Positions 1,030 through 63,650 of a stretch of DNA of 64,000 bases are shown here, piece after piece. Source of the stretch: Octopus vulgaris (Eukaryota); assembly GCA_951406725.2 (NCBI GenBank), contig OX597842.1, positions 8,494,001 to 8,558,000 of the forward strand. The letters are read 5' to 3'. A model generated the notes under the pieces. It saw nothing but the letters and a program-made list of their open reading frames with translations. It was not told where the DNA came from and did not search any database. The translations under genes and the position numbers were made by a program. Numbering within the stretch: the stretch's first letter is position 1; every line of letters starts with the position of its first letter.

Positions 1030-1074
1030 CAACTACAAATGTTTCATGTCTTCTAATGACAATCTTCAGGTGGA
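1030..1074 (-). ncRNA. Minimal type I hammerhead ribozyme (C3:G8, cleavage triplet GUA)
   Basis: Minus strand reads CCAC-CTGAAGA-T TGTC ATTAGAA GACA T-GAAA C ATTT GTA-GTTG. Core is intact, stem II is TGTC/GACA, stem I is imperfect. Lies inside a (TA)n-flanked element at about 853-1126. Confidence 0.6.
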
Positions 1075-1179
1075 TTTCCGATTTTCAAATCAGTTTCAAT
1101 TTATGAAGTCTCTAATTAATATTATATATATATATATATATATATATATATATATATATATATATATACATATATATAA

Positions 1180-1270
1180 CTTTTGTTAACGCGACATCAA
1201 AGTCTGCCGTTTAAAGCTCAATGCGCAACTAAAAAACAAACCCGAGCAACACCGAGCTATACTGCTAGTA
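1180..1270 (+). mobile_element. Possible Helitron 3' terminus
   Basis: Imperfect GC-rich hairpin-like segment (cccgagcaacaccgag) about 10 nt before a CTAGT end. Confidence 0.3.
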
Positions 1271-1482
1271 TATATATATATATATATATATATATATATA
1301 TATATATATTTTTTTTTTTTCTTCTAAATTATGTCATTATAAGAGAAAAAAATGTTTTTAATATTCTTCAAAAATTTTTTTTAATATTCTTCAGACATAT
1401 TGACGCAAATATATATTTTTTAACATTTAAGCCTTCTGTAGTTTTTTCACTTTTTACGATTTTCTATATATATATATATTTT

Positions 1483-1710
1483 AAAACCTCTATTAAATAA
1501 TTCAATAATGAAAGATGTTATTCACACCATATAGAAAACATATACTATAAAAAACCTTATTATAAAAATCAATAAAGTACAATAAATAGTAATGCGCGTA
1601 GTCTTTTTACTACTATTTACTTACTATTGTACTTTATTGATTTGTAGAATAAGGTTTTCTATATGGTGTGAATAACATCTTTCTTTATTGAATTGTTTAA
1701 TAGAGGTTTT
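1483..1710. repeat. Fold-back (palindromic) element
   Basis: aaaacctctattaaataattcaataatgaaagatgttattcacaccatatagaaaac recurs as its reverse complement at about 1654-1710. Confidence 0.8.
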
Positions 1711-2267
1711 TCTCTAAATTATATAAATACATATATTATATATTGTTAAATTGAATTTTTCCCTGTAAGTTTTGGAATTATATTCCCTACTATTATATAT
1801 ATATATATATATATATATATATATATATATATATATATATACATACATAAAAATGTGTGTGTTTGTGTATATGTTCGTGTGTATGTGTCTTTGTGTTTGT
1901 ATTTTTCCTCATCACTGCTTGACAACCGGTGTTGATATATTTATGTCCCCGTAATTTAGTGGTTCGGCAAAGAAATACAATAAGCTTTAAAAAATACCAA
2001 TGGTGTCGATTTATTCTATTTACAACTTCTTTAAGGTGGTGGTGCCCCAGCATGGCTGTAGTCTAATGACTGGAATTAATAAAACAAAAGAAGATAACAT
2101 AGTCACACAGCAAATACCGTACAAGATCAATTTTTGAGTTAGTAAAATTATCTCCACCACTAGAGAACATATCATAATTACTGAATGGTAATATAGGGGG
2201 AGATAATCTCGATATGAAAAGGGGAGATTATCTCAAGAAACAAGAATTTTTCCAATATTGAAATACC

Positions 2268-2500
2268 TATTTCTTTACTACCCAGAAGGGGCTAAACACA
2301 GAAGGGACAAACAAGGACAGACAAACGGATTAAGTCGATTACATCGACCCCAGTGCGAAACTGGTACTTAATTTATCGACCCCGAAAGGATGAAAGGCAA
2401 AGTCGACCTCGGCGGAATTTGAACTCAGAACGTAATGACAGACGAAATACCGCTAAGCATTTCACCCGGCATGCTAACGATTCTGTCAGCTCGCCGCCTT
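2268..2500 (-). mobile_element. tRNA-derived SINE with Meta-like core (family B), 21-bp TSD
   Basis: Core gcctttcatcctttcggggtcgataaattaagtacc. TSD tttttccaatattgaaatacc at 2247-2267 and 2502-2522. Many further copies in the window. Confidence 0.85.
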
Positions 2501-3138
2501 TTTTTTCCAATATTGAAATACCATTAAGGAAAAAGATAGGCTATTATCTGGTATTAAGAGGACAGTCATGGATACATGTTTCTGCCTCAATAGACTTCAT
2601 TGATATGGCAATTGTCCAGTCTTGTCTCCTGTAGCCGAAAGGACTTAGACTTCTTTTTACGCTTTTCTCCTTCTTTTGTCTCTTATTGCTTTTTCATAAA
2701 CTTCTTATTTCATATCTTCAGAGCGAGTGGTTGAACTAACATGCAACTCAGTTCACTACTTCAATGGATGATATGTAGTTGATATTTTTGTATTCTCTTA
2801 TAAAATGTCACTTGTTCTTCAACATGATGAAATAAATTGTCTACCCCTTTCATATTACACGTTTCCTTGCTAATTATCATACTGTGCACTTCACAAATCA
2901 AATTATCGAGTGCATTTAGTAAACTCCGTCATTCTTAAAGCTAGAAGTGTTTTGTGTTAAGAAATGTGTTTTTCCACGGCTGTTGTGTTATTTAAGCAAA
3001 CAGATGTCAAGTGAATTACTGGCAGAATCGTTAGCATGCCGGGCGAAATGCTTAGCGGCATTTCGTCCGTCTTTACGTTCTGAGTTCAAATTCCGCCGAG
3101 GTCGACTTTGCCTTTCATCCTTTTGGGCTCGATAAATT

Positions 3139-62600: not shown

Positions 62601-62700
62601 GTCAACCTCAGTGGATATTGAACTCAGAACATAGTGACGGGCGAAATGCTGCTAAACATTTCGTCCAGTATGCTAATGATTCTGCTAACTCACTGCCTTC
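59620..62700 (-). mobile_element. Cluster of about 10 family B SINE variants interleaved with (TAA)n, mostly minus strand
   Basis: Repeated tggtactt..tttatcgaccc..aaaggatgaaaggcaaagtcgacctcgg..gaatttgaactcaga. Confidence 0.8.
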
Positions 62701-62837
62701 AGTGAGTTATACATATGTGTGTGTATATATATATATATACATTTTGGTACTCCTTTCTACTACATTCAAAATGTGACCTTGTGTGTACCGTTGGCAATTT
62801 TTTTTCCTCTGTCTTCCCTTCTTTGGATCTTTCCTAT

Positions 62838-62872
62838 GTTTCCGACGAAGAGCTCTGCTCGAAACGTTAAAC
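62838..62872 (+). ncRNA. Minimal hammerhead fold with U4>C change (likely decayed)
   Basis: GTTT-CCGACGA-A GAGC TCT GCTC-GAA ACGT T-AAAC. Confidence 0.55.
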
Positions 62873-63177
62873 CCTCCTTCTTTCCTGAGCGTCCAATAAC
62901 ACTATACTTGTTCCACATCCTTGCATTGTTGTGTTTTTTTGTGCTTTCATGTTTGGATTAACTATATATACATACATACATACTAGCATACTACTTCTAG
63001 CATAAGGGTTGTCCACATAGTGGTCATCCCTCTCATATGTATGTAATACAATTTACTGAACCTTCAGATTTTAATATGCTAGACCACAGGTGTTAAATTG
63101 ATGTCAATTAAATTAATATCCAATTTCTCACCCTCATTTTAAATTTATATATATGTATATATATATACACACGTGTC

Positions 63178-63478
63178 GAGGCGCAATGGCTCAGTGGTTA
63201 GGGCAGCGGACTCGCGGTCGTAGGATCGCGGTTTCGATTCCCTGACCAAGCATTGTGAGTGTTTATTGAGTGAAAGCACCTAAAGCTCCATGAGGCTCCG
63301 GTAGGGGGTGGTGGCGATCCCTGCTGTACTCTTTCGCCACAACTTTCTCTCACTCTTTTTTCTGTTGGCCTGCTCGATTAGCCAGCGGGGTGGCGTCATT
63401 AAAAGGCTAAGACAATGCGAAGCGCATTGTGACCAGTGATGTGTAGCAACATCTGATAGCCTGGTCGGTCACAGTGAT
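63178..63478 (+). mobile_element. Family C SINE head with a third tail type (also at 44780-45056, minus)
   Basis: Same tRNA-like head, with tail ...gtagcaacatctgatagcctggtcggtcac. Confidence 0.8.
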
Positions 63479-63599
63479 ATATACACACACATATTTAGAA
63501 GTGTGTCTTTGTAGGCAGCTCTAGTAAACGGAAACTGAAAGAAGCCTGCTGTGTGTGTGCATATATATATATAGTACAAAGTATATATATAGACAAAGT

Positions 63600-63650
63600 T
63601 TTGTCAGTGAACAGGTTGCGGTCTCAAAGCGCCGAAAATATTTTGACAAA
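63600..63650 (+). ncRNA. Hammerhead fold with G3:C8 swapped core
   Basis: TTTGTCA-GTGAACA-GGTTGC GGTCTCAAA GCGCC-GAA AATATT T-TGACAAA. 7-bp stem I and palindromic AATATT stem III. A second family copy at 60787-60938 is truncated at GAAA. Confidence 0.6.

Follow-up and report, generated by a model that had tools for sequence, protein, structure and literature searches.

Hammerhead ribozymes in the pseudo-LTRs of Penelope-like elements (PLEs), together with a U3-A8 variant of the core, have been published by Cervera and de la Pena (2014; PMC4209133), and in the same work the intron of the D. virilis PLE ends at helix I. PLE copies are known to carry an inverted truncated copy and tails and to insert into (TA)n (Craig et al., 2021; PMC8557442). 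The intron of Penelope lies 46 nt after the start site (PMC2377424). Intron retention in PLEs is called unexplained in PMC8557442; an antisense-only template is one explanation given in PMC3846280, which leaves the choice between sense and antisense open. For PAc Poseidon, in vitro work has shown that the tail is set by two internal RT starts, that the hammerhead depends on protein, that insertion in vitro can do without the hammerhead, and that an engineered C3G/G8C exchange partially rescues cleavage (Frangieh et al., 2024; PMC11167929). A derivation of retrozymes from PLE pseudo-LTRs has already been proposed (PMC7229834; bioRxiv 10.64898/2026.07.22.740005). These statements follow the excerpted text of each source.

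Here we analyze a window of 64,000 nt from Octopus vulgaris. An initial annotation had described nine type I hammerheads in unrelated short elements within (TA)n and had read them as non-autonomous, microsatellite-targeted ribozyme retroelements. We conclude with good confidence that they are best explained as hammerhead-bearing pseudo-LTR ends of several PLE families, likely inserted into (TA)n by endonuclease and reverse transcriptase (RT) of their own, and that most copies are likely inert by now.

Results

Ten hammerhead motifs with a complementary 3:8 pair

Hammerhead motifs were found at all nine annotated places (1030, 16918, 18800, 32940, 34265, 38510, 58143, 62838 and 63600, which we use as family names), and a tenth, overlooked at first, lies on the minus strand at 28325 (Table 1). 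Positions 3 and 8 are C:G in six of the original nine, U:A in two and G:C in one, exactly as had been tallied; with the tenth motif, a U:A case, the family consensuses give six C:G, three U:A and one G:C. An A3:U8 core was seen at one locus, L339. A minimal type I hammerhead with complementary 3:8 is kept in the consensus of each high-copy family, and, in keeping with the annotation, the ten queries gave no blastn match to one another at E<0.01.

Nine consensuses have the core N3 U4 G5 A6 N7 N8 A9 / G12 A13 A14 A15.1 / U16.1 H17 with a Watson-Crick 3:8 pair. The tenth, 62838, shares this core apart from U4C: its CCGACGA, present in 30/30 copies, departs from the annotated NTGANNA, which holds for the other noted motifs. 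Stems I and II and a palindromic stem III are present in the consensuses, the palindrome in all ten families, and stem I is weak in 16918, 18800 and 34265. The G10.1-C11.1 pair is not universal, being replaced by U.U in 1030 (a natural variant already reported) and by A.A in 32940 and 58143, with G-C in the other seven. In family alignments, which are built from top-scoring copies and hence biased towards similarity, the 3:8 pair is kept in 30/30 copies of 1030, 16918, 32940 and 62838, 29/30 of 18800, 28/30 of 58143 and 63600, 27/30 of 34265, 27/28 of 38510 and 21/30 of 28325. Decay or weakness marks several window copies: the stems of 1030, 18800 and 63600 are mutated, stem I of 16918 has 2 bp, and stem I of 34265 is mismatched at its base. 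Predicted folding does not favor the active fold in most elements. Judged from their sequences, the nine motifs and 28325 are real as hammerhead motifs.

Table 1. Hammerhead-bearing elements of the window and their parts (N3 and H17, core positions)
Feature	Position	Strand	Remarks
Family 1030, short copy with tail	855..1112	-	end of Hydra-like PLE, spliced form; exon 1/exon 2 junction 1083/1082
Family 1030, hammerhead	N3 1069, H17 1034	-	C3:G8; U.U at 10.1/11.1; stems I and III mutated in window copy
Family 34265, 3′ end fragment without hammerhead	1387..1486	+	
Family 16918, end	16786..16980	-	C3:G8; N3 16950, H17 16922; palindrome ATAT; stem I 2 bp in window copy
Family 18800, fold-back	18593..18926	+	right arm 18790-18926 with hammerhead; left inverted arm with tail
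Family 18800, hammerhead	N3 18803, H17 18833	+	U3:A8; stem III mutated in window copy
Family 28325	28200..28400 (boundaries approximate)	-	U3:A8; N3 28325, H17 28291
Family 32940	32905..33190	-	3′ end 32905-about 33125; inverted tail about 33126-33190
Family 32940, hammerhead	N3 32973, H17 32944	-	C3:G8; A.A at 10.1/11.1; stem II 2 bp; young Hydra-type PLE
Family 34265, fold-back	34071..34378	+	right arm with hammerhead; left arm truncated within core, tailed; young Neptune-type PLE
Family 34265, hammerhead	N3 34272, H17 34297	+	U3:A8; palindrome ACCGGT
Family 38510, fold-back	38067..38648	+	right arm about 38380-38645 with hammerhead; left arm tailed, GAAA broken
Family 38510, hammerhead	N3 38516, H17 38592	+	C3:G8; long stem II
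Family 58143, Hydra-type PLE	58036..58929	-	hammerhead arm 58036-about 58392
Family 58143, inverted arm	58393-58432 and 58817-58929		interrupted by unrelated repeat
Family 58143, hammerhead	N3 58225, H17 58147	-	C3:G8; A.A at 10.1/11.1; long stem II
Family 62838	62760..62962	+	about 200 bp flanked by TA runs; no inverted arms
Family 62838, hammerhead	N3 62842, H17 62868	+	C3:G8 with U4C; palindrome ACGT
Family 63600 with tail	63592..63791	+	5′ edge about 22-32 nt before N3
Family 63600, hammerhead	N3 63607, H17 63643	+	G3:C8; 7-bp stem I; palindrome AATATT; stem II mutated in window copy

Frequency relative to chance

The strong test against chance is an evenly drawn 600-kb sample rather than counts in the window. 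In that sample 20 of 24 descriptor matches were paired at 3:8, compared with 0.6 of 2.4 in 12 shuffles. Sixteen of the 18 multi-locus clusters were paired, with three different pairs, and the two repeated clusters that were unpaired are located within repeated PLE sequence. In the window, descriptor 1 gave 3 matches, all paired (60 shuffles: 1.3, 0.35 paired, maximum 3), and descriptor 2 gave 3 (100 shuffles: 0.49, 0.1 paired, maximum 1). Jointly they recover 6/10 window motifs, and on the window alone the excess above chance is modest. An Rfam search of the window returned 0 matches at gathering score; the E-value matches listed, 150 of 394, were 149 to miRNA models and one to a pestivirus UTR model on repeats, with no hammerhead among them. 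The warning that a search fixed on CUGANGA would miss variant cores proved sound: such a search misses 5/10 window motifs and 9/20 paired matches in the even sample. Rough scaling from that sample puts the genome at an estimated 70,000-90,000 intact motifs, of which fixed-core searches would overlook about half.

Fold-backs, tails and target sites

The 3′ ends of copies fall at two fixed sites. Fold-backs are arranged head to head, and just one of the two arms is tailed. All 57 of the 57 fold-backs scored in four families have the tail on the selected arm and a partner that ends at the shorter site, a count biased for the selected arm since the queries contained the tail. Among the 28-30 copies per family, 10-22 are accompanied by an inverted arm in seven families, against 1/30 for 32940 and 0/30 for 62838. 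The description of the window elements as mostly fold-back applies to four of the nine, which have long arms (18800, 34265, 38510 and 58143), and not to the remaining five, of which 1030 and 32940 have short inverted pieces and three have none. With inverted arms, a single RNA holds no partner for dimerization, and the arms are predicted to pair the motif away.

Targeting of (TA)n was borne out for most families: in six, TA adjoins the 3′ end of 21-28 copies out of 28-30 (background 7%), with lower values in 16918 (13/30), 18800 (10/30) and 63600 (11/30) and 0/30 in 28325. The 5′ ends show no clear peak at the predicted cleavage site in any family; apparent 5′-end clusters in 1030 and 62838, considered as cleavage ends, probably come from related subfamilies. 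Published PLE traits already include insertion into (TA)n, arms set head to head, a tail on one side, and U3:A8.

Long copies of seven families continue into Penelope-type reading frames

The suspected Penelope link was found upstream of the motif in long copies of 7/9 families, as GIY-YIG frames and, where copies were read that far, RT. These families are best read as pseudo-LTR ends rather than separate retrozymes. Their designation as non-autonomous retroelements is not supported in general, with 7/9 families running into endonuclease/RT frames, and survives in part for the 652-copy fold-back of 63600, the tandem family 28325 and possibly 62838. Frames are of Hydra type in 1030, 32940, 38510 and 58143, of Neptune type in 34265 and probably 18800, and of a canonical GIY-YIG type, unassigned to a clade, in 16918; clade names are based on motifs plus one supported tree split. 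RT was seen in 32940, 34265 and 1030.

In 32940 the endonuclease lies 921-984 nt upstream at 19 loci among 47 matches, some loci being redundant, RT is present in L299 and L316, and RWK, DKT and CxCX5C accord with the Hydra definition, as does the (TA)n target. The CxCX5C linker recurs in 58143, with endonuclease frames in L184, L429, L431 and L433, and in 1030, where the coding link is in L465 and L466. In long copies of 38510 the query is preceded, at 146-190 nt, by an endonuclease of Hydra-like type, which joins the Hydra-type families at 98/95 in an endonuclease tree of 11 rows whose sole supported split is the Hydra-like one; the linker was not seen in L304. The RT of 34265 matches RVT_1 at E 3.6e-7 and 5.3e-8. 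A Neptune linker, CX2-5CxxC, precedes GIY-YIG as CGRSNCATC (CX4CX2C) in 34265 and as CTNDNCMIC in 18800, where an endonuclease frame lies upstream in 3/10 long copies; this linker, on which the Neptune assignment rests, is also known in Nematis and Naiad. Two long copies of 16918 (L070, L082) carry the GIY-YIG frame, 206-271 nt upstream of the query.

GIY-YIG scores were under the Pfam cut-off and Hydra-type proteins match no Pfam family. A homologue search with the 32940 RT returned 1,574 proteins, mostly without names and with no clade name among them. Contigs assembled from RNA runs, which carry no strand or end information, cover the 34265 frame. Among the copies read (about 2 Mb of 2,800 Mb), no reading-frame link was found for 62838, 63600 or 28325; an endonuclease in L228, 847 nt from 62838 with TA repeats between, was treated as a neighbor, as were single frames close to 63600 and 28325. 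Three same-strand acceptor pairs of family 1030 are 5,534-5,676 nt apart, the interval having been read in part.

Two genomic forms of family 1030

Family 1030 occurs in two genomic forms, one with a GT-AG segment of ~1,030 nt that ends 13 nt before the hammerhead core and one lacking it; its precise absence from some copies is the behavior expected of a leader intron. Exact searches gave 30 matches for the donor GTATGT (control 1), 103 for the acceptor TAG (control 0) and 126 for the junction of the spliced form, and an acceptor lies downstream of 25/30 donors, in 21 cases at 1006-1130 nt. The start of 44/49 spliced arms 19-31 nt upstream of the junction points to spliced sense RNA as template, and the intron-less short copies were likely copied from spliced RNA, the evidence for splicing being two DNA forms in this one family. 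Fold-backs comprise 19 spliced-spliced and 15 unspliced-unspliced head-to-head pairs and 1 mixed pair; L049 is a single insertion with one spliced and one unspliced arm. Pairing of like with like also fits a separately amplified spliced subfamily. Candidate introns were rejected in 62838 (18 heterogeneous matches, no class) and in 63600, where the acceptor-like class is the fold-back junction and a donor test gave 30 matches versus 4 controls, none paired with the acceptors listed on C1.

Families without a linked frame

In 63600 a single G3:C8 fold-back junction recurs in 652 copies, with 0 matches to the unjoined context. Family 28325 is old (81% pairwise identity) and lies outside (TA)n, with a direct-repeat copy nearby in 9/30 loci at a period of about 350 bp; by its repeat pattern it is retrozyme-like. 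Direct-repeat copies number 0-1 in 28-30 loci for eight of the other nine families and 2 for 62838. The short tandem repeats, each with a hammerhead, that mark retrozymes are not characteristic of the nine families and are present in part in 28325.

Discussion

Chance or functionless look-alikes, or MITE-type DNA transposons in the case of the fold-backs, are a very improbable source of these motifs, given the excess of paired matches over shuffles in the 600-kb sample, the three different pairs among 16/18 clusters, the palindromic stem III of all ten families, arms that are unequal, one-tailed and truncated to varying extent, and the RT/GIY-YIG frames upstream; the empty Rfam result at gathering score, the low in-window counts, the two repeated unpaired clusters within PLE sequence and the broken state of several window copies are what such a source has in its favor. 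The initial annotation's own reading, if taken in the sense of animal non-LTR retrozymes, would make them independent non-autonomous elements that are transcribed, cut by the hammerhead to unit length, circularized and reinserted. It suits the direct repeats of 28325, a five-unit 505-bp array in L385 and a G3:C8 motif in a 166-bp array on C2, and it draws support from the sharp 5′ limits of 62838 and 63600, neither with a linked frame, and from the 652 identical junctions with no unjoined counterpart. As an account of the set we consider it unlikely, as coding frames continue from 7/9 families, direct repeats are scarce outside 28325, copies end away from the predicted cleavage site, and the motif would be sequestered by the inverted arms.

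A further alternative concerns the splicing step alone and is compatible with a PLE origin. The intron-less 1030 form may have arisen once, as a spliced retrocopy or by deletion, and then spread as a short non-autonomous subfamily, in which case it says little about the normal PLE template. Spliced copies are 97% alike and their arms pair like with like, and 63600 is an example of a single short structure multiplied to hundreds of copies. On the other side, L049 unites a spliced and an unspliced arm in one insertion, two stem II variants exist among spliced copies (L461, L463 and L464 versus the rest), and their fold-back junctions vary, with 39-156 nt between arms; even one origin requires spliced sense RNA once. 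We view a single origin as possible but doubtful.

If the elements are PLE pseudo-LTR ends, transcription would begin about 28 nt before the donor, inside the pseudo-LTR. The intron would then be spliced out, and RT would start at one of a pair of internal sites lying close downstream of the hammerhead. On spliced RNA it would run off the 5′ end and leave short copies; on unspliced RNA it would yield long copies, truncated to varying extents and still holding the intron. One-tailed fold-backs would arise where both strands of the target are primed from the two start sites. The ribozyme may be active only as a dimer formed through the palindrome of stem III, whether between partial tandem units (which in 1030 are about 5.5 kb apart), in trans, or with PLE protein. 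Pairing at 3:8 would be maintained by selection on master elements, not on the window copies, and some short forms, such as the 652-copy fold-back and the tandem arrays, may have turned into masters. We hold in even balance the broader proposal that many short stubs are run-off cDNAs of spliced sense PLE 5′ ends primed at internal RT sites; that PLEs copy sense RNA, intron retention reflecting priming on unspliced RNA and not an antisense template; that stubs seed non-autonomous masters and retrozyme arrays; and that all four Watson-Crick 3:8 pairs occur naturally in one genome.

Comparison is made here with the excerpted texts of the sources. The octopus motifs resemble the PLE hammerheads of PMC4209133 in their palindromic stem III, extra base after A9 and short stem I, and in having many families per genome, mostly solo copies, opposite-strand pairs 100-700 bp apart and U3-A8. 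They differ in that octopus also has G3:C8 (63600) and A3:U8 (L339, one locus), U4C and U.U or A.A at 10.1/11.1 fixed across whole families, and abundant intron-less genomic copies in one family. With the Hydra and Neptune PLEs of PMC8557442 they share RWK, DKT and CxCX5C (Hydra) or CX2-5CxxC (Neptune), (TA)n, an inverted 5′-truncated copy, a tail at one end and hammerheads; octopus tails are about 40-70 nt rather than 30-40, 3′ non-coding parts reach 1-2.8 kb whereas Hydra elements there are under 3 kb, and our clades are named from motifs and the one supported tree split. Two RT start sites, an AT-rich target and extension of both strands recall PAc Poseidon, although the octopus evidence is genomic and the 3:8 swap natural; run-off copies of spliced RNA are not among the descriptions in the excerpts of PMC11167929. 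Short tandem repeats with type I hammerheads, like those of animal non-LTR retrozymes (PMC7229834; bioRxiv 10.64898/2026.07.22.740005), occur in family 28325 and in the L385 and 166-bp arrays, while the nine other octopus motifs stand outside tandem arrays and the octopus cores include U:A and G:C. We found no earlier description of the two-form 1030, natural G3:C8 or A3:U8, or the 652-copy junction; G3:C8 or A3:U8 may feature in Lunse et al. (2016) or the Terminon paper, and these families or cores in the supplements of PMC4209133, PMC8557442 and PMC13282606.

As in D. virilis Penelope (PMC2377424; PMC3846280), the intron of family 1030 lies shortly after the start in the pseudo-LTR and is kept in long genomic copies; unlike it, the segment is about 1,030 nt rather than 75 and is precisely absent from many genomic copies, which is at odds with the antisense-only template considered in PMC3846280. 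Natural cores with G3:C8, U3:A8, A3:U8, U4C or a mismatch at 10.1/11.1, carried by young elements of high copy number, form a ready panel for hammerhead biochemistry, and, while the system itself is known, the presence of both forms of 1030 in one genome makes the PLE template question testable.

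Hammerhead motifs and element families

Reading of the motifs confirmed all nine type I hammerheads of the initial annotation, together with the identities it had given for the core pair between N3 and N8 (3:8), and a descriptor match added a tenth. Families are named after the window positions of their motifs. The window, G000:C29:8494001-8558000, belongs to a genome that comprises 2.80 Gb in 227 contigs, and has abundant (TA)n and SINE/LINE fragments. Each element is high-copy, with 1,244-4,181 first-look hits per family, which are candidates and not copy numbers. Consensuses built from the 28-30 top copies of each family, a check proposed at the outset, all retained the hammerhead, with core, stems and palindromic stem III. 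The claimed diversity of the elements also holds, with no blastn similarity among the queries. Two descriptors gave 3 matches apiece on the window versus 1.3 and 0.49 in shuffles; combined they catch 6/10 motifs and neither catches all. Decay of several copies, or weakness of their stem I, explains why no single descriptor finds all ten. An Rfam search of the window returned 0 hits at gathering score. The window hammerheads are candidate ribozymes.

Pairing of 3:8 was also seen beyond the window. In 60 evenly spaced 10-kb stretches, searched with positions 3 and 8 left free, 20/24 matches were paired: 15 C:G (five from one array), 3 U:A and 2 G:C. Twelve shuffles of this sample yielded 2.4 matches, 0.6 of them paired, and the suggested comparison with shuffled sequence thus favors the motifs. 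Among multi-locus (≥2 loci) clusters in a biased and partly redundant 1.99 Mb set, 16/18 were paired, and both exceptions lie within repeated family 32940 sequence. A3:U8 occurs at one locus, L339, downstream of a Neptune-type endonuclease.

Features located in the window and in further loci of the same genome
Location	Feature	Details
Window 28325, minus strand	Tenth hammerhead	U3:A8; descriptor match
Window near 55.2 kb	Assembly gap	100 N
Window 31649-31826, 35138-35375, 53390-53541, 61516-61923	Fold-back repeats	SINE-like arms or composite; no descriptor match
Window 5361-7237 and 57190-57651	Presumed RTE- and CR1-like LINE reading-frame fragments	Labels based on motifs
L349:1245-3587 and other places	Neptune-type PLE	Many 781-residue open frames; U3:A8 hammerhead
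G000:C2:17908252-17910771	Tandem array	At least 16 units of ~166 bp, each with 5′ half of 63600 G3:C8 motif
L385:2068-4100 (G000:C4, near 108.00 Mb)	Tandem array of five units	505-bp period; C3:G8 type I hammerhead in each unit; retrozyme-like
L302:5219, L368:1961, L400:6266, L370:8794, L188:2435, L192:158	Mutually similar hammerheads	Short stem II loop; switch between C:G and U:A

Ends, tails and inverted arms

The elements have two 3′ end sites, 40-70 nt apart. In the four families whose fold-backs were scored, the selected arm carried the tail and its inverted partner ended at the shorter site in 57/57 cases, a count obtained with queries that themselves contained the tail. The proposed (TA)n targeting applies to most families but fails in 28325 and is weak in 16918, 18800 and 63600. 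Published descriptions of Penelope-like elements (PLEs) include inverted copies, tails and a bias toward (TA)n (PMC8557442), and in vitro the tail is delimited by two internal reverse transcriptase (RT) starts (PMC11167929).

Inverted arms and TA after the 3′ end (TA background 7%)
Family	Loci with inverted arm	TA after 3′ end
1030	22/30	28/30
16918	14/30	13/30
18800	17/30	10/30 tail-aware, 3/30 otherwise
32940	1/30	21/30
34265	13/30	26/30
38510	14/28	24/28
58143	10/30	25/30
62838	0/30	28/30
63600	15/30	11/30
28325	1/30	0/30

Predicted folding of the window's four long fold-backs pairs the motif away (stem II probability 0.00), and an inverted arm is unable to serve as a same-strand dimer partner. 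Most genomic copies are therefore likely to be inert as ribozymes.

Links to Penelope-like elements

The initial annotation described non-autonomous ribozyme retroelements and suggested a search for linked frames. The PLE link stands, but 7/9 families run, in long copies, into GIY-YIG frames on the same strand, and RT was found in 32940, 34265 and 1030. In family 32940 the endonuclease lies ~930 nt upstream with RT further on, and RWK, DKT and CxCX5C are present, as in the Hydra elements of PMC8557442. In family 34265 the RT matches Pfam RVT_1 (E 3.6e-7) and the endonuclease has a CX4CX2C linker, to which that of 18800 is similar. The endonucleases of 38510, 58143 and 1030 are related (grouping support 98/95), and two collinear loci of 16918 show a canonical endonuclease. 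Pfam GIY-YIG scores for proteins of these families fell below cut-off. More PLE families turned up in a family search, with open frames of 781 residues and U3:A8 or U4C hammerheads of their own; the Neptune-type PLE of L349 has probably been active recently. In another Neptune-type family (L350, L356, L363, L364, L368) the hammerhead combines U4C with U.U at 10.1/11.1.

No linked reading frame was found in the copies examined of families 62838, 63600 and 28325. Family 62838 is ~200 bp long, has no arms and is bounded on its 5′ side about 105-125 nt ahead of N3. In 63600 every copy read has this limit ~22-32 nt ahead of N3, with heterogeneous loose ends in one search. One of its fold-back junctions, marked by a diagnostic variant, is present 652 times, and a search for the variant in unjoined context gave 0 occurrences; L377, the sole such copy read completely, spans ~345 bp between TA runs. 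Family 28325 is old, lies outside (TA)n and is often tandem.

Two forms of family 1030

As far as GATTTGAAA, the long copies L465 and L466 match the short copies; after it the long copies read GTATGT (CTATGT in L465) and the short copies ATCGG into the hammerhead. Exact searches found 30 donor-type sites (control 1), 103 TAG/CAG acceptor-type sites (control 0) and 126 occurrences of the joined form, to which the window copy belongs (junction 1083|1082). A same-strand downstream acceptor, among 100 acceptors listed, was found for 25/30 donors, 21 of them at 1,006-1,130 nt. Of 49 spliced arms, 44 reach upstream of the junction by 19-31 nt; 2 are shorter there, and 3, among them the reference itself, are longer. 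These two DNA forms suggest splicing. Since the GT-AG segment is lost precisely, its loss implies that copying would have proceeded from a sense RNA template. PMC3846280 did not decide between sense and antisense templates; with both forms in one genome, the question becomes testable.

Whether the spliced form arose recurrently can be weighed from its arms. Among 100 listed places of each kind, head-to-head pairs comprised 19 spliced-spliced, 15 unspliced-unspliced and 1 mixed, and this like-with-like pairing counts against recurrent origin. Counting for it are the mixed insertion L049, where a spliced and an unspliced arm occur together, the presence of two versions of stem II in spliced copies, and variable fold-back junctions.

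Long copies of 32940, 16918 and 18800 carry an AG 10-22 nt before N3 (window 32973, 16950, 18803), like the 1030 acceptor; no spliced form was found among the copies examined.

Comparison with known systems

No account of G3:C8 or A3:U8 in natural hammerheads, of genomic PLE stubs lacking the intron, or of octopus hammerheads was found in the main texts searched, which did not extend to Lunse et al. 2016 or the Terminon paper. For O. vulgaris, 31 recently active PLE families are listed in PMC13282606, with no mention of ribozymes in the part consulted. The 1030 segment resembles the Penelope intron, which lies 46 nt after the start site (PMC2377424) and in D. virilis ends at helix I (PMC4209133). 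Family 28325 resembles the non-LTR retrozymes of PMC7229834, whose origin a 2026 preprint places in PLE pseudo-LTRs (bioRxiv 10.64898/2026.07.22.740005). U3-A8 is a known natural pair, PLEs included (PMC4209133), U4C and U.U at 10.1/11.1 are known natural variants, and an engineered G3/C8 swap partially rescues a PLE hammerhead (PMC11167929). Overall, the initial observation is borne out and its interpretation partly supported: judged by sequence, the window motifs are of a known kind, PLE pseudo-LTR hammerheads, together with new candidate variants.
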